DNA of 64,000 nucleotides from Kangiella sp. (GCF_014762745.1 NZ_JABURJ010000015.1:21303-85302); one strand, 5' to 3'; positions 10,368 through 59,714 are shown, numbered from the stretch's first letter. Notes: generated from the sequence alone by a model not told the origin. A program made the numbers and translations.

Positions 10368-10378
10368 ATCATTCGGGT

Positions 10379-10390
10379 ACGCTACCGCCC
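10379..10390 (-). promoter_or_regulatory. ops element (RfaH loading site, JUMPstart)
   Basis: Minus strand GGGCGGTAGCGT, matching the ops consensus GGCGGTAGnnT, between rfaH and the first polysaccharide-operon gene. Confidence 0.85.
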
Positions 10391-10534
10391 GTGGGTTTTG
10401 GTTCCCAAAGCACCATAGCAGCCAGCCCATCTGTTTGTTTTTTGTCCGCTTTTTTTACAAATTCTCAAATCGCGCGCTATTATAGTCAAATAGCTCACAA
10501 TTGTAACCGCAAGATTTAATTAATTTCCGTCCAT

Positions 10535-15902: not shown

Positions 15903-15978
15903 TCCCCCTTAGTTCAGTTGGTAGAACGGTGGACTGTTAATCCATATGTCGCTGGTTCAAGTCCAGCAGGGGGAGCCA
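15903..15978 (+). tRNA. tRNA-Asn (GTT)
   Basis: Acceptor stem TCCCCCT/AGGGGGA, anticodon arm GTGGA-CTGTTAA-TCCAT, GGTTCAAGTCC T-loop, encoded CCA. Confidence 0.97.
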
Positions 15979-16154: not shown

Positions 16155-17006
16155 TTATCTCAACAGAATAAGTGGAATATTACTGTTGCTAATCATGGTT
16201 TGGGTATTACTGCCAACGAAGAATTGGCGAACGCGGGAATGCCCATAAGCACCCATGATCATCATTTCAATACCAACCTTATGGCGATAGGCTTTCAATG
16301 CTTCGATAACCTCGCCTTCAACTAATGCTGACTGGACAGTGTGGCCATGCTTTTTCAAAATCTCAGTGGCTTGGTTTAGGGCCTGATTATTTTTTTCGTT
16401 ATCATCACCGACCATCACAATATGCCCTTCCAAACCTTTCAACAAAGGACTCGCGGCGACGCGATCAATAGCTTTGTTGGCAGTATCGCTACCATCATAA
16501 GCAATCATGTAGTTCTTCGGAGCTTTGAACTCTCCTACCGCAACCAGAATCGGCACATGCATGGCGCGGATAACGCTTTCCAGCTGCGAGCCAATAGTAT
16601 GGGCTGAAATATCATGATCTTCGCCCAAGCGCCCAATAACCAATAAACGCATACTGGATTCGAGTTCTGTTAATGACTCAAGCAGACTGCCATGACGCTG
16701 TTGCATCAGGACATTAGTAGCACCCTGCTCCACAGCACGCTGACGTGCATCTTCCAGCATATGCTTACCATGCTCCAACGCAATCCGGCTACGCTTCTCA
16801 TCAAGCTCGGTTAGCTGCTCTAGCAGGGATTCTCGAGCACCCAGTCCAATTGAACCAGAAAGGTTTTCATTTTCAGGGCTGACTGTTTTTTCCAGTACAT
16901 GGAGCAGATTCAAAGGTGCTTCCAGCTTTTTGCTCGCCCAGACCGCTGCGTCACACACCGAAGCTGACATGGCAGAGCCATCAATACAGGCAATTATATT
17001 TTTCAT
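16155..17006 (-). CDS. Tandem-domain universal stress protein
   Basis: IIACIDGS start, LLVIGRLG, second Usp domain IAYDGS...MGAYGHSRVRQFFVGSNT. Confidence 0.9.
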   Translation of the reverse strand: MKNIIACIDGSAMSASVCDAAVWASKKLEAPLNLLHVLEKTVSPENENLSGSIGLGARESLLEQLTELDEKRSRIALEHGKHMLEDARQRAVEQGATNVLMQQRHGSLLESLTELESSMRLLVIGRLGEDHDISAHTIGSQLESVIRAMHVPILVAVGEFKAPKNYMIAYDGSDTANKAIDRVAASPLLKGLEGHIVMVGDDNEKNNQALNQATEILKKHGHTVQSALVEGEVIEALKAYRHKVGIEMMIMGAYGHSRVRQFFVGSNTQTMISNSNIPLILLR

Positions 17007-17027: not shown

Positions 17028-18518
17028 CTAGTGTCCAGACATCAGCTTTTCAACCTCTTCCGGTTTATCATAAATACTAAACTTATCGACAACCGTTTTT
17101 GAGGCTTCATTCAGTCCAATTACATTAACATGAGTGCCCTCACGACGGAACTTGATAACGACCTTATCCAACGCACCAACCGCAGTGATATCCCAGAAGT
17201 GGGCATGCGTCAGATCAATGGTGACTTCTTCAATGGCTTCCTTAAAGTCGAAAGCACCAATAAACTTCTCCGAGGAAGCAAAGAACACCTGACCAACCAC
17301 CTCATAGTAGCGTGAACTCACGTTTTGCTCATTCGTACGTTTAATGATCATAAAGCGGCCAATTTTATTGGCAAAGAATAGCGCCGCCATCAAGACACCA
17401 ACGAATACACCGATTGCCAGATTATGAGTTGCGACAACCACGACGACGGTTGCTACCATCACCAGATTGGTAGACATCGGGTGTTTTTTGAGATCTTTAA
17501 TAGATGACCATGAGAAAGTACCGATTGAGACCATGATCATTACCGCAACGAGTGCGGCCATCGGAATCAAGCTAATCCACTCATCCAGAAAAACCACTAA
17601 AACAATAAGAACAGAGCCTGCAATAAAGGTCGACAAACGCCCACGACCACCTGACTTAACATTAATCACAGACTGACCAATCATGGCACAGCCCGCCATA
17701 CCGCCCATCAAACCGGCACCAATATTGGCAATACCCTGACCTTTACACTCGCGATTCTTATCGCTCGGTGTATCGGTTAAATCATCGACAATGGTAGCTG
17801 TCATCAACGATTCTAGAAGACCGACTACAGCCAATGCCGCCGAAGTTGGGAAAATAATCATCAATGTTTCCAGGTTCAGAGGAACATCAGGCCACAAGAA
17901 GATTGGTAAGGTATCAGGCAATTTACCTTTATCTCCGACCGTCGGTATATCCCAACCCAGCGCCACTACAGCGATAGTAATTCCGACAATACAAATCAAA
18001 GGCGACGGAAGAATTTTTCCGATAACAGGGATCAGAGGAAATAAATAGATAATGGCCAAACCTACCGCGACAAAGAAATACACATGCCAGGTAACATCAA
18101 TCAGTTCGGGAATCTGCGCCATAAAAATCAATATCGCCAGAGCATTAACAAAACCAGTAACCACCGAGCGGGAAACAAAACGCATCAGCCCATCAAGACG
18201 AAGATAGCCTGCAGCGATTTGTAAAATACCGGTAAGAACCGTAGCAGCCAACAAATATTCAAGTCCATGCTCTTTGACCAGCGTCACCATAAGCAAAGCC
18301 ATAGCGCCGGTTGCTGCCGAAATCATGCCCGGACGACCGCCAACAAAGGCAATGATAACCGCGATACAGAAAGAGGCATAAAGGCCAACCTTAGGGTCAA
18401 CTTCAGCAATAATTGAAAAAGCGATAGCCTCTGGGATTAAAGCCAGAGCAACCACTAAACCGGCAAGCAGATCGCCTCTGATGTTTGAGAACCAGTCTCT
18501 TTTGATAGTTTGTAACAT
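17028..18518 (-). CDS. sulP: SulP family inorganic anion transporter with STAS domain
   Basis: GLVVALALIPEAIAFS, GGRPGMISAATGA, GCAMIGQSVIN, STAS GQVFFAS...HFWD. Confidence 0.92.
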   Translation of the reverse strand: MLQTIKRDWFSNIRGDLLAGLVVALALIPEAIAFSIIAEVDPKVGLYASFCIAVIIAFVGGRPGMISAATGAMALLMVTLVKEHGLEYLLAATVLTGILQIAAGYLRLDGLMRFVSRSVVTGFVNALAILIFMAQIPELIDVTWHVYFFVAVGLAIIYLFPLIPVIGKILPSPLICIVGITIAVVALGWDIPTVGDKGKLPDTLPIFLWPDVPLNLETLMIIFPTSAALAVVGLLESLMTATIVDDLTDTPSDKNRECKGQGIANIGAGLMGGMAGCAMIGQSVINVKSGGRGRLSTFIAGSVLIVLVVFLDEWISLIPMAALVAVMIMVSIGTFSWSSIKDLKKHPMSTNLVMVATVVVVVATHNLAIGVFVGVLMAALFFANKIGRFMIIKRTNEQNVSSRYYEVVGQVFFASSEKFIGAFDFKEAIEEVTIDLTHAHFWDITAVGALDKVVIKFRREGTHVNVIGLNEASKTVVDKFSIYDKPEEVEKLMSGH

Positions 18519-18722
18519 TGTAATAACCGTAAAATATGAATCACGACTGTTAAGCCGTATTTAAAAACAAGCAGGAAATACTCGCAGCCAGGGGCGAGCC
18601 AATTGATAACTAGAGGTGTTATCTAAGGGAATAAGTGTGCGCTATGGCGGACTAATGAGCATTAAAACTCGGTTCTGGCTAAAAGGAGCGCGGAGTTTAC
18701 CAGCGAGGATAGTCAATTACAA
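18519..18722 (-). promoter_or_regulatory. sulP promoter and long 5' leader, possible cis-regulatory RNA (sul1-like)
   Basis: TTGTAA-17bp-TAAACT (18722-18694) gives a ~170-nt leader with AAACTC/GAGTTT complementarity. The family assignment is unverified. Confidence 0.4.
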
Positions 18723-18775: not shown

Positions 18776-18858
18776 TGGGTCTCCCCCTTCGGGGATTTCC
18801 GACCTACGGAGTGAAGCATGAGCAATTGTTGGGATTCACTCTGTTCATCCCCACCTAC
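18776..18858 (-). repeat. Two GTAG-type REP-like elements
   Basis: GTAGGTCGGAAATCCCC-GAA-GGGGG (18807-18776) and GTAGGTGGGGATGAACAGAGTGAATCCCAAC (18858-18828). The second is 24/31 identical to 5314-5344. Confidence 0.6.
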
Positions 18859-18927
18859 ATCCACCCAAAGTACTTTGGCCTGCTACAGGCATGATCGTCC
18901 ACTCTAAAGTGGCTAAATATTTTGGGC

Positions 18928-19100
18928 AAAAAAAAAGCCGAGAACGAATCTCGGCCAAATCCCACCATATAGCTGAAGGAAAACTGATTAGGGGTATGCC
19001 CTATTTCTGAAATGGAAACTTTTGCTTCAATACGATTCAATACTTTATTTGTCTTCCACTCTGTGATACAAATAGCTATCGAATGCATTTCAGAACTTGG
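18928..19100 (-). ncRNA. Candidate ~170-nt small RNA transcribed divergently from the XRE regulator
   Basis: Promoter TTGATT-17-TATTAT (19134-19106) and terminator GCCGAGA-TTCGT-TCTCGGC-T9 (18954-18928). No ORF with an RBS fits between them. Confidence 0.5.
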
Positions 19101-19105
19101 TTTAA

Positions 19106-19134
19106 ATAATAATGCAAATATGCATACAAATCAA
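19106..19134 (-). promoter_or_regulatory. sigma70 promoter with an ATGCA-N4-TGCAT operator-like palindrome in its spacer
   Basis: -35 at 19134-19129, -10 at 19111-19106, inverted repeat 19112-19125, extra TGCAT half-sites at 19083 and 19143. Confidence 0.55.
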
Positions 19135-19165
19135 ACCGAATTTGCATCTTTTTTAGGAAATCTGA

Positions 19166-19555
19166 ATGAGCGAAATAATTGATCAACTAAAACAGCTTAT
19201 GCAAAGCCTTGGAGAAACGGATTATTCCATGCAGCATAAGGCTCACATCAGCCAATCGACCATTTATCGTATTTTAGAGGGGAAAACATCTGATCCAGGT
19301 GTTCATAAAATCGATGGTTTGGCTAGAGCGCTTGGATATAGGCTGGCTCTGGTTCCAATGAGCGAATACTATACTCAGGTAGATTATGGTGCAGAGGTTG
19401 ACACACTTGGCAAAATCATCGCCTTAGTAGAGTCACTATCAACAACTCGCGGTATTAACCTTACTCCTGAAGAGAAAGCAGAATTAATCCTCCAAAACTA
19501 TCGTGCTAATAGCAGTAAAGAAGAACTTGGGGTTAGAATCGCCAATTTGAAGTAG
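19166..19555 (+). CDS. XRE/cI-like helix-turn-helix transcriptional regulator
   Basis: ISQSTIYRILEGKTSDPGVHKIDGLARALG HTH_3 pattern, C-terminal LTPEEKAELI helix, AGGA RBS. Confidence 0.85.
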   Translation: MSEIIDQLKQLMQSLGETDYSMQHKAHISQSTIYRILEGKTSDPGVHKIDGLARALGYRLALVPMSEYYTQVDYGAEVDTLGKIIALVESLSTTRGINLTPEEKAELILQNYRANSSKEELGVRIANLK

Positions 19556-19605
19556 CTTTCTATTAGCTATTAGAGTTAGCCAAAAGAATTTTAAACAGAT
19601 AAACC

Positions 19606-19632
19606 AAAGGCCTGCAATTGCAGGCCTTTTTT
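19606..19632. terminator. Bidirectional intrinsic terminator between convergent genes
   Basis: AAAGGCCTGC-AATT-GCAGGCCTTT followed by TTT. Confidence 0.8.
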
Positions 19633-19654
19633 GTACTTTGAAAAATTATTGGTA

Positions 19655-20041
19655 TTAAGTTCTAGTGAACTCTGTTGGCGCTTTAGTGCTTTGTAGCTGA
19701 ATAGGCTTTAAGAAACCACGTGATTGAATAATACGTCGATTATTGGTTTCAAACTCCTGTAGCTTTTGGTTCCACAACAGAATCTCACGCAACTTATCTT
19801 TCTCAGGTAAGTTGCTAGACTCAATCTGTGAATATTCCTGGAGCAAACGCAAACCAATCATATCAGCTCGTTGGAAAGCTGATAGATCTATAACGTTGCC
19901 ATTAGACTCATATTCGCTATCTAGCGAATACTCATCATAAGGAACGTCGATTCGTCCGCGGTAAGCTTTCAGGATTAGCCAAAACAGCGCTGCTGCGAAC
20001 GCTGCTAACACTAAACCGTAGGCCAAAAATAGTAATGCCAT
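19655..20041 (-). CDS. Hypothetical single-pass membrane protein
   Basis: N-terminal TM (LLFLAYGLVLAAFAAALFWLIL) then KAYRGR, AGGAAG upstream, ends just before the terminator; overlaps the upstream ORF by 107 nt. Confidence 0.6.
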   Translation of the reverse strand: MALLFLAYGLVLAAFAAALFWLILKAYRGRIDVPYDEYSLDSEYESNGNVIDLSAFQRADMIGLRLLQEYSQIESSNLPEKDKLREILLWNQKLQEFETNNRRIIQSRGFLKPIQLQSTKAPTEFTRT

Positions 20042-20531
20042 TGATTTTTCTTCCTAATGTTACCACCAGCTGTTTAGCCACTGGTGTTAATAAAGCTAAT
20101 ATGATGCAGATGTTTACGGCATTCAGCGTATAGCTTTGTATGCCTTTTATTATTTCGAAATCTGTATAGTGTCTTTCTATAAAACGGATTAAGTGAAATC
20201 CAATTGCAAGAATAGTTAGCACACTTACTGCAAACTCTTCTTTTAAAACTCTACCAGTGGTCACTGCTCTATAAGCCACATAGAGTAGTATCAATATATC
20301 TGTGACCATCCACGATATATACCATATAAACTTTGCTTCTGTATGATTCCAAAGAATTGGAGTAATAATCCAATTTATAAACTGAATTACAACAATTGCC
20401 ATACAAAACTGAACAAGCCTTGAGTTCTTTGTAAATGCCAAATGCAAAATTAAACACCCCACAAGCGATAAAGTAAAAATATCGCTCGTGAGGTCAAGTA
20501 AGTTATACTGATTTACAAAGTTTTGAATCAA
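19935..20531 (-). CDS. Hypothetical polytopic membrane protein (~5 TM)
   Basis: Five hydrophobic segments separated by short charged loops; TTG start overlaps the stop of the upstream peptide ORF (TTGA). Confidence 0.75.
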   Translation of the reverse strand: MIQNFVNQYNLLDLTSDIFTLSLVGCLILHLAFTKNSRLVQFCMAIVVIQFINWIITPILWNHTEAKFIWYISWMVTDILILLYVAYRAVTTGRVLKEEFAVSVLTILAIGFHLIRFIERHYTDFEIIKGIQSYTLNAVNICIILALLTPVAKQLVVTLGRKINGITIFGLRFSVSSVRSSAVLANPESLPRTNRRSL

Positions 20532-20683
20532 TTCTCTTTCTCTTTATTTGGGTTATCACCTGGGTCACCACCACCACCACCAGTGAAAACATGCACTATT
20601 GGTGTTTCTTCAAACGCAGGCGCTTCAAAATTTTGTGGTTCTGAGATAGATAAATAGCAGATCATAGCGATAGTTTCAAACAT
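20528..20683 (-). CDS. Unannotated 51-aa peptide with a Gly5 tract
   Basis: MFETIAMICYLSISEPQNFEAPAFEETPIVHVFTGGGGGDPGDNPNKEKEN; AAGAGG RBS 8 nt upstream; stop overlaps the next start. Confidence 0.7.
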   Translation of the reverse strand: MFETIAMICYLSISEPQNFEAPAFEETPIVHVFTGGGGGDPGDNPNKEKEN

Positions 20684-20907
20684 AATATTTTCCTCTTAAG
20701 TAGATGATTTAGTAAAAAAAAGCCTATAGAATTTACTCACATAGCATTTAGAAAAACAAATTGCACGGGGAACGTTAACTAACTCATTGCTTTTAAAAGA
20801 ATTTCCTAACAGCTCTCATTTTTGCAATCCATTTACTCTGTACAAATTTTAGCCACAGTTGATTATTAAAAGTGTGAACTAAATTTTACATTTGATAAAA
20901 ATATTTT

Positions 20908-21525
20908 ATGAGTCGATTTCTTAAAAAATACGCATTCGCATTACTCTTAAGTCATATTTGCATTATTAGCTACCTACTTTTGCCTCAATCTAACTTATGG
21001 ATGGCTTATGATCGACCCCTTGTCGAAAATGGACAGTGGTGGCGCTTTATTACAGCAAACCTGGTTCACCTTGGTGGCTGGCATACCATTATGAACTTAG
21101 CCAGTCTTTGGCTGATTAGCTTTATCTTTCAGCCACTGTTAAAAATGTCTCACTGGATTGGTTGGGTGCTACTGCTTTACTTTGTTAACATCTTGGCGAT
21201 GCATCTATGGACCCCACATATTATTCACTACGTTGGTATGTCCGGGGCTCTATACGGATTGATTGCGGCATGTGCGACTGCAGAGCTAAGACTTGGTGTA
21301 AAAATCAGTGGTGTACTGCTGATTATCGTCGGCATAAAAATCTTTTTGCCACAAATTGTTGGTGTTGAATCTGAATATGATGAATTTTTAGGTGGGGCAG
21401 TGGTTGAAGAGTCTCATATTATAGGCTTTATTCAGGGGATCATTCTCGGTCTCTTGTGGCCTAAGCAATTACTGAACGGGCCAGTGCTTCAGTCAATCCT
21501 CAAATCAAACAAGTCTAAAGAATAA
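20908..21525 (+). CDS. Rhombosortase (rhomboid protease, GlyGly-CTERM processing)
   Basis: GQWWRFITANLVH....H..MN, YVGMSGALYG catalytic Ser, late H (ESHIIG). Confidence 0.75.
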   Translation: MSRFLKKYAFALLLSHICIISYLLLPQSNLWMAYDRPLVENGQWWRFITANLVHLGGWHTIMNLASLWLISFIFQPLLKMSHWIGWVLLLYFVNILAMHLWTPHIIHYVGMSGALYGLIAACATAELRLGVKISGVLLIIVGIKIFLPQIVGVESEYDEFLGGAVVEESHIIGFIQGIILGLLWPKQLLNGPVLQSILKSNKSKE

Positions 21526-59342: not shown

Positions 59343-59468
59343 CCTAAGTTATATAGAAAATTAGCTTTATGCCATTTAGTTAATTCAAAGCTATGAACAT
59401 ATACTTTTAAGAGCAGATAGCACCAATTACCCCCTTATATTGAGCTAAGGCACGTACAAAATATAGCA

Positions 59469-59714
59469 ATCAAAATCGTGGATGATTTTGATAAGAATTT
59501 TCAGCACAGGGATGTGATGTAAATTCTGGTGCGTTAAGTATTTTGGGAGTGACGCAGGTAGTCACGCAAAGCGTGACCTCAATATCGGGGTGTCGTTTCT
59601 TTTGGTCCCTTTTCTTTGGACAAGCAAAGAAAAGGGACTCGCTGAGTAGCGAAACAAAAACCATAGGAATGGACAAGCGAAAAGATCATGGATTCCCGCC
59701 TCCGCGGGAATGAC
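59469..59714. repeat. Second intergenic mosaic of palindromes, including a dRS3-like element
   Basis: ATCAAAATC-N6-GATTTTGAT (59469), GTAG-TCACGC-AAA-GCGTGA (59558), 14-bp stem GTCCCTTTTCTTTG/CAAAGAAAAGGGAC (59605-59638), ATTCCC-N8-GGGAAT (59692-59711). Confidence 0.7.

Follow-up and report, generated by a model that had tools for sequence, protein, structure and literature searches.

The stretch of DNA analysed here, 64,000 nucleotides (nt) of a Kangiella genome (the window; all coordinates are counted from its first letter), carries a cassette of three small genes next to the gene of an XRE/Cro-CI-type regulator. The cassette encodes, in this order, a peptide, a protein with five transmembrane segments (the 5-TM protein) and a protein with a single transmembrane (TM) helix (the anchor). 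It converges on the XRE gene, which is itself divergent from a small RNA (sRNA). The features of the locus and its surroundings are listed in Table 1.

Table 1. Positions of the cassette, the regulator, the sRNA and neighbouring features in the window.
Feature	Position	Strand	Basis
Peptide gene, 51 amino acids (aa)	20528-20683	-	Open reading frame (ORF) listing
5-TM gene, 198 aa	19935-20531	-	ORF listing
Anchor gene, single-TM, 128 aa	19655-20041	-	ORF listing; own AGGAAG ribosome-binding site
XRE/Cro-CI-type helix-turn-helix (HTH) regulator gene, 129 aa	19166-19555	+	Pfam HTH_3 match
Bidirectional intrinsic terminator	19606-19629	both	Terminator scan; RNA contigs break here
sRNA, ~170 nt	~19098 to 18928	-	12-locus alignment, covariation, terminator scan
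Divergent promoter/operator region, O_R-like	19106-19152		Promoter hexamers and palindromes
Hypervariable type block	20099-20600	-	Drop in nt identity versus locus L007; synonymous divergence (dS)
Cassette leader, ~215 nt	20684-20899	-	Conserved block; repeated before every array cassette
O_L-like operator-like sites	20931-20963		Repeat search; in the rhombosortase gene, first 60 nt
Rhombosortase gene	20908-21525	+	TIGR03902, 137 bits versus a cut-off of 84
tRNA-Asn	15903-15978		
Usp gene	16155-17006		
SulP gene	17028-18518		
Degenerate copy of the tRNA-Asn 3' part	18545-18566		
Variable segment	18734-18919		
JUMPstart element	10378-10415	-	Rfam match at gathering level
TwoAYGGAY RNA	59442-59560	+	Rfam match at gathering level

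The initial annotation of this DNA had described a compact AT-rich module in which a coupled operon of a 51-aa peptide, a protein of about five TM segments and a single-TM protein of 128 aa converges on an XRE regulator at a shared bidirectional terminator, with the XRE gene divergent from a putative sRNA and with no recognisable enzyme domain. This description is upheld by the present analysis. All elements are present, and the GC content of the locus is 0.33-0.385, compared with about 0.44 for the window. The TTG start codon of the 5-TM gene overlaps the TGA stop codon of the peptide gene by 4 nt, and the start of the anchor gene overlaps the tail of the 5-TM gene by 107 nt (19935-20041). 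The anchor and XRE genes, separated in Kangiella by a 99-nt spacer, have a common terminator, a hairpin with a 10-bp stem that scores on both strands and whose T-run is listed on the plus strand. In metatranscriptomes of related Kangiella, one RNA contig covers the XRE gene (19091-19623) and ends at this terminator, a separate single contig links the anchor, 5-TM and peptide genes, and another covers the leader region (20641-20791). Both the cassette and the XRE gene are transcribed in situ, and the cassette genes are co-transcribed. Searches of Pfam, NCBIfam, PHROGs and PADLOC with the peptide, 5-TM and anchor proteins returned no enzyme and no known family. The putative sRNA is backed by compensatory base changes and a conserved promoter.

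In every Kangiella locus recovered, the gene order is pyrF, comEA-like gene, rhombosortase gene, one to three cassettes of peptide, 5-TM and anchor genes, XRE gene and sRNA; because of this recurrence, the arrangement is not a product of chance. The three-cassette array of K. marina (L002, 5840-9607) is decaying: a frameshift divides its second anchor gene into pieces of 84 + 46 aa, and in the third cassette the 5-TM gene call is truncated and the anchor gene absent.

The regulator, its operator-like sites and the sRNA

The HTH of the XRE protein spans residues 8-61, and the C-terminal domain behind it measures about 60 aa. The Pfam matches are limited to HTH_3 (1.5e-5), HTH_26 and HTH_31, peptidase and TPR domains being absent from them. 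The protein is 75-98% identical across Kangiella and matches repressor/regulator families of PHROG; its sole PADLOC match is a weak one to capH (E 0.004). Searches of the PDB sequences with the XRE and anchor proteins gave nothing significant, the similarity of XRE to HigA having an E-value of 0.8. An N-terminal HTH_3, palindromic ATGCA sites in the divergent promoter and the presence of repressors beside the cassette in phage contigs place the protein among the Cro/CI-type repressors.

The palindrome ATGCAAATATGCAT (19112-19125) lies between the -35 (19134-19129) and -10 (19111-19106) hexamers of the sRNA promoter, and an additional TTTGCAT half-site (19140-19147) lies on the side of the XRE gene. 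At the other end of the cassette, the O_L-like site CATATTTGCAT (20953-20963) repeats the sRNA-promoter site letter for letter and is accompanied by a degenerate second site (20931-20944). The 11-mer ATGCAAATATG has 21 exact matches in about 205 kb of Kangiella loci, where about 0.2 are estimated to occur by chance. Each of them either belongs to the XRE/sRNA promoter or precedes a peptide gene by 245-297 nt; the distance is 280-297 nt for the first peptide gene, where the match falls within the first codons of the rhombosortase gene, and 245-277 nt for the internal cassettes in L012. The combination of a copy at the XRE/sRNA promoter and one upstream of the first cassette, an O_R/O_L-like layout, is found in 11 of 12 Kangiella genomes. 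Other internal cassettes carry the palindromes AGTCATTTATGCAT-N8-ATGCATAAATGACT.

Every cassette, the internal ones included, is preceded by a terminator and by its own leader of about 235 nt with a conserved block, which is TTTATCAAATGTAAAATTTAGTTCAC at 20874-20899 in the window and ends 9 nt from the rhombosortase ATG. The leader is probably the promoter region of the cassette; as a candidate structured RNA, it yielded no base pairs in RNAalifold predictions. Judged by the position of the sites, the XRE protein may bind them and would then repress or tune both the cassette(s) and the sRNA. Because of this operator pattern, XRE is suggested to act upstream of the cassette and the sRNA and not as their output, contrary to the role first assigned to XRE. 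With operator-like sites in the first 60 nt of the divergently oriented rhombosortase gene and the promoter block so close to its ATG, XRE binding could also alter rhombosortase expression.

The sRNA, of about 170 nt, is bracketed by a promoter-like site (19134-19106), both hexamers of which are conserved in the 12 Kangiella genomes, and by a minus-strand terminator (18956-18936) with its T-run. In the alignment of these genomes, the 5' domain is structured and contains the conserved block CACAG...ACAAATAAAG. A hairpin at 18989-19003 covaries, its stem occurring as GGG/CCC, CGGU/ACCG, CAGA/UCUG and CAAU/AUUG. It is followed by an invariant segment of 30 nt (18957-18986) and by the rho-independent terminator, which shows one compensatory change from G-C to A-U. 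Past the T-run, the similarity among the genomes drops abruptly. Two-sided changes occur at five pairs, a value reached by 0 of 500 shuffles, and the minimum free energy of the window sequence is -47.5 kcal/mol (z = -3.4). No Rfam family matches the sRNA region at the gathering threshold; the sub-threshold matches to SorX (26.9 versus 46.6) and STnc480 (34 versus 72) span the terminator hairpin only. An invariant 28-mer of the sRNA was found in four metagenome contigs, all of them Kangiella with the same layout, and in zero viral contigs.

On comparative evidence the sRNA is real; it is novel, and it sits where a lambdoid phage has cro. The reading of this region as protein-coding was rejected, the 77-aa ORF in question (18855-19088) crossing the terminator and not being kept in K. 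marina. Within the window, the invariant 30-mer has no convincing partner, its best non-self duplex being antisense inside gyrA, and the full sRNA scores no better against the cassette leaders than shuffled sequences do.

The cassette proteins and their types

The N-terminus of the Kangiella peptide, MFE(T/S)IAMICYLS, is nearly invariant and shows changes at third codon positions. Behind a variable middle part come the motif T-G-x-x-G-G-[E/D]-P and, at the very end, a tail of acidic residues. All three cassette genes are under purifying selection. Across lineages, the motif G-x-G-x-[E/D]-P, present in 1-10 copies, is the sole conserved part of the peptides, and outside Kangiella its extended form G-x-G-x-[E/D]-P-[P/I] is the sole common feature of the small ORF that precedes the 5-TM gene. 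In L014, a Sec signal is followed by ten copies of GGGGVEPIAV, and in L017 by three copies of GGGGTDPIP. The peptide of L020 has a double-glycine-type leader, ITDEELLRVSGG, and then GNGNGNEIP. The motif takes the form NGGGNEPP (twice) in L018, GNGAGIEPPK (three times) in L021, GHGWGNEPP in L022 (Alkalimonas), NGWGNEPPQ in L024 and ...VYTGGGGVDPDDD in L013. The N-terminal parts of these peptides are mutually unrelated export-type signals, with Sec signals in two lineages (L014 and L017) and a double-glycine leader in one (L020), which suggests that the peptide is exported.

The N-terminal halves of the Alkalimonas-type motif peptides (L021 4647-4985; L022 5741-5986; L024 5718-5972) resemble FlgM, with the patterns M-x-I-S-N-N... 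and D-x-V-x-L-S-x-E-A-x-x-K-L and a match to TIGR03824 at E 0.008, below the cut-off. This likeness raises the idea of export via the flagellar apparatus. By eye, GGGGTDPIP and GGGGVEPIAV look like the RTX nonapeptide GGxGxDxUx; this reading was abandoned, as neither HemolysinCabind nor any other Pfam family matched, and the repeat peptides of L014 and L017 gave no Pfam match at E <= 1. A functional link to the rhombosortase through membership in the GlyGly-CTERM family was likewise rejected: the peptides end in an acidic tail without the TM helix of a GlyGly-CTERM substrate, and the rhombosortase gene adjoins the cassette in Kangiella only and not in L013-L024.

AlphaFold models the 5-TM protein as five long helices with a disordered tail, and hydropathy and the positive-inside count predict an N-out/C-in topology. 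W70, Y71 and R116 are kept throughout the superfamily, and D78, E/D119, R120 and N140 largely so. The distant relatives, of 116-189 aa, have the pattern W-Y...D...R-x-x-(E/D)-R...N in common, and the predicted position of these residues is close to the periplasmic face. The superfamily alignment contains no conserved His, Ser or Cys, and a Foldseek search of the PDB with the 5-TM model found nothing better than E 0.75.

The last 35 aa of the 5-TM protein are encoded within the 107-nt overlap, in which one frame specifies this tail and the other the TM helix of the anchor. The overlap is the most conserved DNA of the locus and shows almost no synonymous change (pS, the proportion of synonymous differences, is 0-0.07 between genomes saturated elsewhere), as true dual coding would lead one to expect. 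The TM helix of the anchor comprises residues 2-20 and is followed by K/R; the protein is predicted to be oriented N-out with a cytoplasmic helical domain. Among close relatives, the anchor is 92-99% identical across types. Outside Kangiella, its sequence homology reaches L014 only. In all eight lineages with downstream DNA, the gene after that of the 5-TM protein encodes a single-pass protein of 95-130 aa, and only members of the same sub-group are recognisably similar in sequence.

The type block consists of the C-terminal two-thirds of the peptide and residues 1 to about 145 of the 5-TM protein, with near-identical DNA on both sides. Compared with L007, the closest genome, positions 20595-20099 are 64-69% identical in nt, the flanks are mostly 85-100% identical, and the borders are sharp. 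Peptide residues 1-14 are 100% identical between the two genomes and those from residue 15 to the end 65%; the 5-TM body is 65%, the 5-TM tail 98% and the anchor 99% identical. In the 5-TM body, dS is 1.47, versus 0.19-0.5 for pyrF, anchor, XRE and SulP genes and 0.87 for the rhombosortase gene. Pairs of the same type in distant genomes (the window and L003; L004 and L006) have a ratio of non-synonymous to synonymous divergence (dN/dS) of 0.02-0.04, and paralogues of one array are as divergent (54-62%) as alleles of different species. These comparisons mark the block as an old allele brought in by recombination, and they indicate that discrete, old and strongly conserved types exist for the peptide's C-terminal half together with the 5-TM body. 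The 107-nt overlap on one side and the peptide N-terminus with the leader on the other flank the hypervariable block like paired recombination handles.

The variable x-x dipeptide of the motif follows the type of the 5-TM protein. Pairs that have GG, MG, NG or GS in common have 5-TM bodies that are 79-95% identical, and pairs with SN or GN 70-72%; for pairs with differing dipeptides the values are 47-77%. The peptides of L004 and L007 are 92% identical and differ in the motif (M versus T); the identity of the corresponding 5-TM bodies is 65%. A Mantel test gave a correlation of 0.63 (p = 0.0002), a value to which linkage contributes and which reflects few independent events. The two variable motif residues may set type specificity, and cognate recognition of the peptide by the 5-TM protein is probable. 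Of the earlier suggestion that the membrane protein binds or exports the peptide, the binding fits the matched peptide and 5-TM types.

Relatives in phages and chromosomes

The 5-TM protein has 29 relatives in a collection of 5.8 billion proteins; the named ones all belong to Kangiella, and the rest are unnamed metagenome proteins. A profile search found 17 proteins among 1.84 billion representatives. The trio is a rare, unannotated family, and no description of a peptide/5-TM/anchor cassette turned up in the literature searches made. The initial annotation had proposed to examine whether homologues of the 5-TM protein keep a Gly-rich micro-ORF upstream and an XRE gene nearby. The motif micro-ORF is indeed kept upstream in nine of nine lineages examined; a convergent HTH repressor stands beside the cassette in four of eight and is missing from the other half.

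In L018/L019 and in L025, an IMG/VR contig, the cassette converges on the gene of a CI-like repressor that is itself divergent from a Cro-like gene. Downstream of the latter lie O-like, DnaB-like, Ren-like, NinB, RusA-like and Q-like genes. These contigs are lambdoid phage with the cassette in the rexAB slot of lambda. In L017, the cassette converges on a repressor gene beside integrase, Bro-N and T7-type RNA polymerase genes, and in L013 on an XRE gene in a contig that also carries AlpA. The repressors of L013, L017 and L018 have 132-158 aa. The 3' ends of the anchor and repressor genes overlap by 4 nt in L018 (4777-4780), L025 (1452-1455) and L013 (1066-1069) and by 23 nt in L017 (3337-3359); the transcripts must therefore overlap as well, so that antisense effects or transcriptional interference are possible. 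In L018, the palindrome TACATAATGTA has two copies upstream of the cassette and a third between CI and cro, and the cassette-facing TATAAT overlaps the operator-like palindrome. Members of the family are matched at 2e-9 by phrog_31674, a family of unknown function. Of two IMG/VR scans with single proteins, one returned one phage contig and the other none. The first reading of the locus had pointed out that an XRE gene with membrane genes is common in lysogeny and phage-defence modules. The former connection is borne out by the cassettes that abut a phage repressor in three mobile elements; for the latter, PADLOC gave no match to a known defence system.

The trio also occurs alone among housekeeping genes, in L014, L021, L022/L023 and L024. 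Because these four lineages carry it without a repressor, the conserved unit is the trio, and the repressor neighbourhood is frequent but not obligatory. A co-evolving XRE partner was considered and rejected: the repressors of four lineages, that of Kangiella included, have no mutual BLASTP similarity.

On the far side of the sRNA, the Usp and SulP genes lie between tRNA-Asn and the degenerate copy of its 3' part. In K. marina, the tRNA is about 400 bp from the XRE gene, without Usp and SulP between them, and the Usp/SulP segment of the window resembles a small islet that entered at the tRNA. A variable segment, which contains a GC-rich hairpin, GGGTCTCCCCCTTCGGGGATTTCC, separates the terminator of the sRNA from the upstream region of SulP. 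It is unaligned or displaced in close relatives, an RNA/DNA contig of a related strain substitutes 18807-18906, and its sole Rfam match is a weak one to DUF3800-II (E 2.9). Elsewhere in the window, Rfam families match at gathering level in two places, of which the JUMPstart element lies in the low-GC first 12 kb (Table 1).

Interpretation and comparison with known systems

The best explanation found for the locus is a domesticated fragment of the immunity region of a temperate phage, equipped with type-specific peptide sensing. As a whole, this explanation is plausible and falls a little short of probable. Its parts differ in strength: prophage origin and layout are very probable, and sensing or signalling as the biological role is put forward tentatively. 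The layout runs from an O_L-like region through cassette, repressor and O_R-like region to a rightward transcript, with the CI-like XRE gene between two sets of the same operator-like sequence and the sRNA at the position of cro. The cassette is a self-contained functional unit, found alone in chromosomes too and in one to three tandem copies in Kangiella, and its peptide motif and 5-TM protein are matched partners. The peptide would be exported, by way of Sec in two lineages and of a double-glycine leader in one, the short motif G-x-G-x-[E/D]-P would be the ligand of the cognate 5-TM protein, and the nearly type-independent single-pass protein would serve as a common cytoplasmic partner. The role would then be type-specific peptide sensing, a pherotype-like self-recognition inherited from phages.

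Sensing is the most likely function when set against toxin production or enzymatic activity, because conservation in the peptide is confined to a short linear motif, because this motif can be the whole mature product in up to ten repeats, because the N-terminal parts look like interchangeable export devices, and because the membrane partner splits into a type-specific and a type-independent subunit. A broader proposal is speculative and rather unlikely: the cassette may represent a new class of peptide communication in Gram-negatives and temperate phages, made up of an exported motif peptide, a 5-TM receptor and a generic single-pass transducer. The precursor would in some cases release up to ten copies of the peptide, to be sensed at the periplasmic face of the 5-TM protein, and the two variable motif residues would define discrete pherotypes. 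In phages, convergent overlapping transcription against the repressor gene would bias the choice between lysis and lysogeny; in Kangiella, the module would have been domesticated together with the CI-like XRE and a new sRNA.

Several observations weigh against sensing within a former immunity region. The binding of this XRE to its operators is deduced from the position of the sites. The tracking of motif and 5-TM type comes from few independent events, and the two are physically linked at a distance of about 40 nt. The AlphaFold fusion of peptide and 5-TM protein leaves the peptide unplaced (pLDDT 27-37), and the variability of the 5-TM protein shows no significant concentration on the predicted periplasmic side relative to the cytoplasmic side (0.72 versus 0.75, p = 0.4). 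In Kangiella, the peptide begins with no recognisable signal peptide, and its export is presumed. A tblastn search of GenBank phages with the 5-TM proteins and XRE gave no match. Since the repressors of different elements are unrelated, they may adjoin the cassette for no other reason than that accessory genes tend to insert at this site. An output domain is absent. Because half of the cassettes are without a neighbouring regulator and the repressors are not homologous, a relay from receptor to XRE at the protein level is unsupported.

Among the alternatives, superinfection exclusion or phage defence fares best, and it is unlikely. The cassette would then be a rexAB-, nun- or sie-like accessory set of the immunity region, in which the 5-TM protein and the anchor block the entry of phage DNA or trigger abortive infection, and the types and arrays would result from an arms race. 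Such a role would suit a cassette that adjoins the repressor in three unrelated mobile elements, holds the position of rexAB in a lambdoid contig, has members in a PHROG family, is AT-rich and near tRNA-Asn, and shows tandem expansion and hypervariable alleles. It leaves unexplained the conserved, multi-copy motif of an exported peptide and the matching of motif and 5-TM type, and it is at odds with the very strong purifying selection on the 5-TM protein within a type. PADLOC-DB v2 contains no match for the peptide, 5-TM protein or anchor at E <= 1, and in L018, where TATAAT and operator-like palindrome overlap, a lysogen may keep the cassette repressed.

A bacteriocin or microcin is a less likely alternative still. 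Here, cells would secrete the peptide as a toxin and owe their type-specific immunity to the 5-TM protein together with the anchor, and arrays would stack several toxin/immunity types. The small, acidic, Gly-rich peptides, the discrete matched types, the tandem cassettes and the textbook double-glycine leader of L020 all agree with such a system. The conserved part of the peptide, however, is a motif of only 7-9 residues, and in L017 and L014 the mature product consists of 3-10 motif copies only, which leaves no room for a toxic domain. No C39/ABC exporter is present in any locus examined, and families of bacteriocins and immunity proteins are unmatched.

An envelope toxin–antitoxin (TA) or abortive-infection pair, in which a labile peptide neutralises a membrane-damaging complex of 5-TM protein and anchor and its loss upon infection or stress kills or arrests the cell, is improbable. 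A small first gene followed by a larger partner with a 4-nt stop/start overlap is as expected of a TA operon, and so are the cognate specificity, the apparent insulation of paralogues from one another, the carriage by mobile elements and the XRE neighbour. Peptides with a Sec signal or a double-glycine leader would, however, leave the cytoplasm, no TA family matched, the HigA-like similarity of XRE is weak (E 0.8), and a three-gene unit with a conserved third gene is atypical of TA pairs. That small genes without a common function lie together by chance, or that the ORFs are mis-called, as the annotation of all proteins as 'hypothetical' and the origin of most relatives from one genus might suggest, can be dismissed in view of the recurrence of the trio in nine lineages with differing genomic contexts, its co-transcription, the purifying selection on all three genes and the operator-like sites common to the XRE/sRNA promoter and the cassette.

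Peptide communication and pherotypes are textbook matter for Gram-positive bacteria and their phages, as in Agr, Com, Rap-Phr and arbitrium. To our knowledge, Gammaproteobacteria and lambdoid phages have essentially no known counterpart. The cassette offers a compact three-gene candidate that is directly testable and comes with natural specificity variants (two motif residues versus 5-TM type), and its phage-borne versions sit against a repressor gene. Should it be an exclusion or immunity device instead, the locus would be a 'grounded' immunity region that has long been kept in a marine genus with small genomes, with a P_R-type transcript turned into a conserved sRNA. Two conserved DNA 'handles', the peptide N-terminus with the leader and the dual-coding overlap, would then let type blocks be swapped and stacked. 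A transposon fitness library exists for Kangiella aquimarina DSM 16071 (locus L004) (10.1101/072470), and it puts a first functional test within reach.

In layout, the immunity region of lambda (O_L, rexB-rexA-cI, O_R, cro) is the closest counterpart. It likewise has a CI-type HTH repressor between two sets of operators, an accessory membrane-protein cassette between O_L and the repressor, and a short rightward transcript from an O_R-type promoter. The cassette of L025 occupies exactly this slot, and Kangiella repeats the layout with an operator sequence of its own. Unlike the lambda genes, the cassette converges on the repressor gene and is not co-transcribed with it. Its proteins have no similarity to RexA or RexB in Pfam, PHROGs or PADLOC, so that the equivalence is positional only. 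Moreover, the Kangiella repressor lacks an S24 peptidase, the cro position is taken by a non-coding sRNA, and no other phage genes are left in the window.

The arbitrium system (aimR-aimP-aimX), like Rap-Phr/RRNPP cassettes borne by phages or mobile elements, places a small gene for an exported propeptide beside the lysogeny switch of a temperate phage. The functional peptide is C-terminal or nearly so, a small RNA is encoded in the vicinity, many types exist, several cassettes can occur in one genome, and the peptide is taken up via Opp. The cassette resembles these systems in its C-terminal motif peptide, the nearby sRNA, the specificity types and the number of cassettes per genome. It differs in that the candidate receptor is a 5-TM protein with a single-pass partner and not a cytoplasmic TPR-HTH protein; the XRE protein, of 129 aa, has no TPR, the hosts are Gammaproteobacteria, half of the cassettes are without a regulator, and nothing suggests Opp.

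With the specificity groups of staphylococcal agr (AgrB-AgrD-AgrC), the cassette has in common a propeptide gene adjoining that of a polytopic membrane protein, which has about 190 aa, a sharply bordered hypervariable block over part of the peptide and the membrane protein, discrete old types, and conserved flanks that permit allele exchange. In contrast to agr, it has no Pfam match to AgrB or AgrD, lacks the catalytic His/Cys pair, and has no cysteine in the peptide core for a thiolactone. Histidine kinase and response regulator genes are absent from the Kangiella loci. The Agr/Com/Rgg-type logic first invoked does not, therefore, make the cassette a member of these systems, as it has neither AgrB/AgrD nor a kinase nor a TPR receptor. 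Class II microcins resemble it in the Gly-rich acidic peptide encoded beside a small polytopic membrane protein, in the tandem diversified cassettes and in the double-glycine leader, which is found in L020 only and is absent from the Kangiella peptides. They differ in that the cassette has no exporter and no family match and that its conserved part is a short motif in up to ten repeats. The cassette thus fails the defining features of the lambda Rex, arbitrium/RRNPP and agr families. What likeness there is concerns layout in the case of the lambda immunity region, logic in that of arbitrium and Rap-Phr, and population genetics in that of agr.

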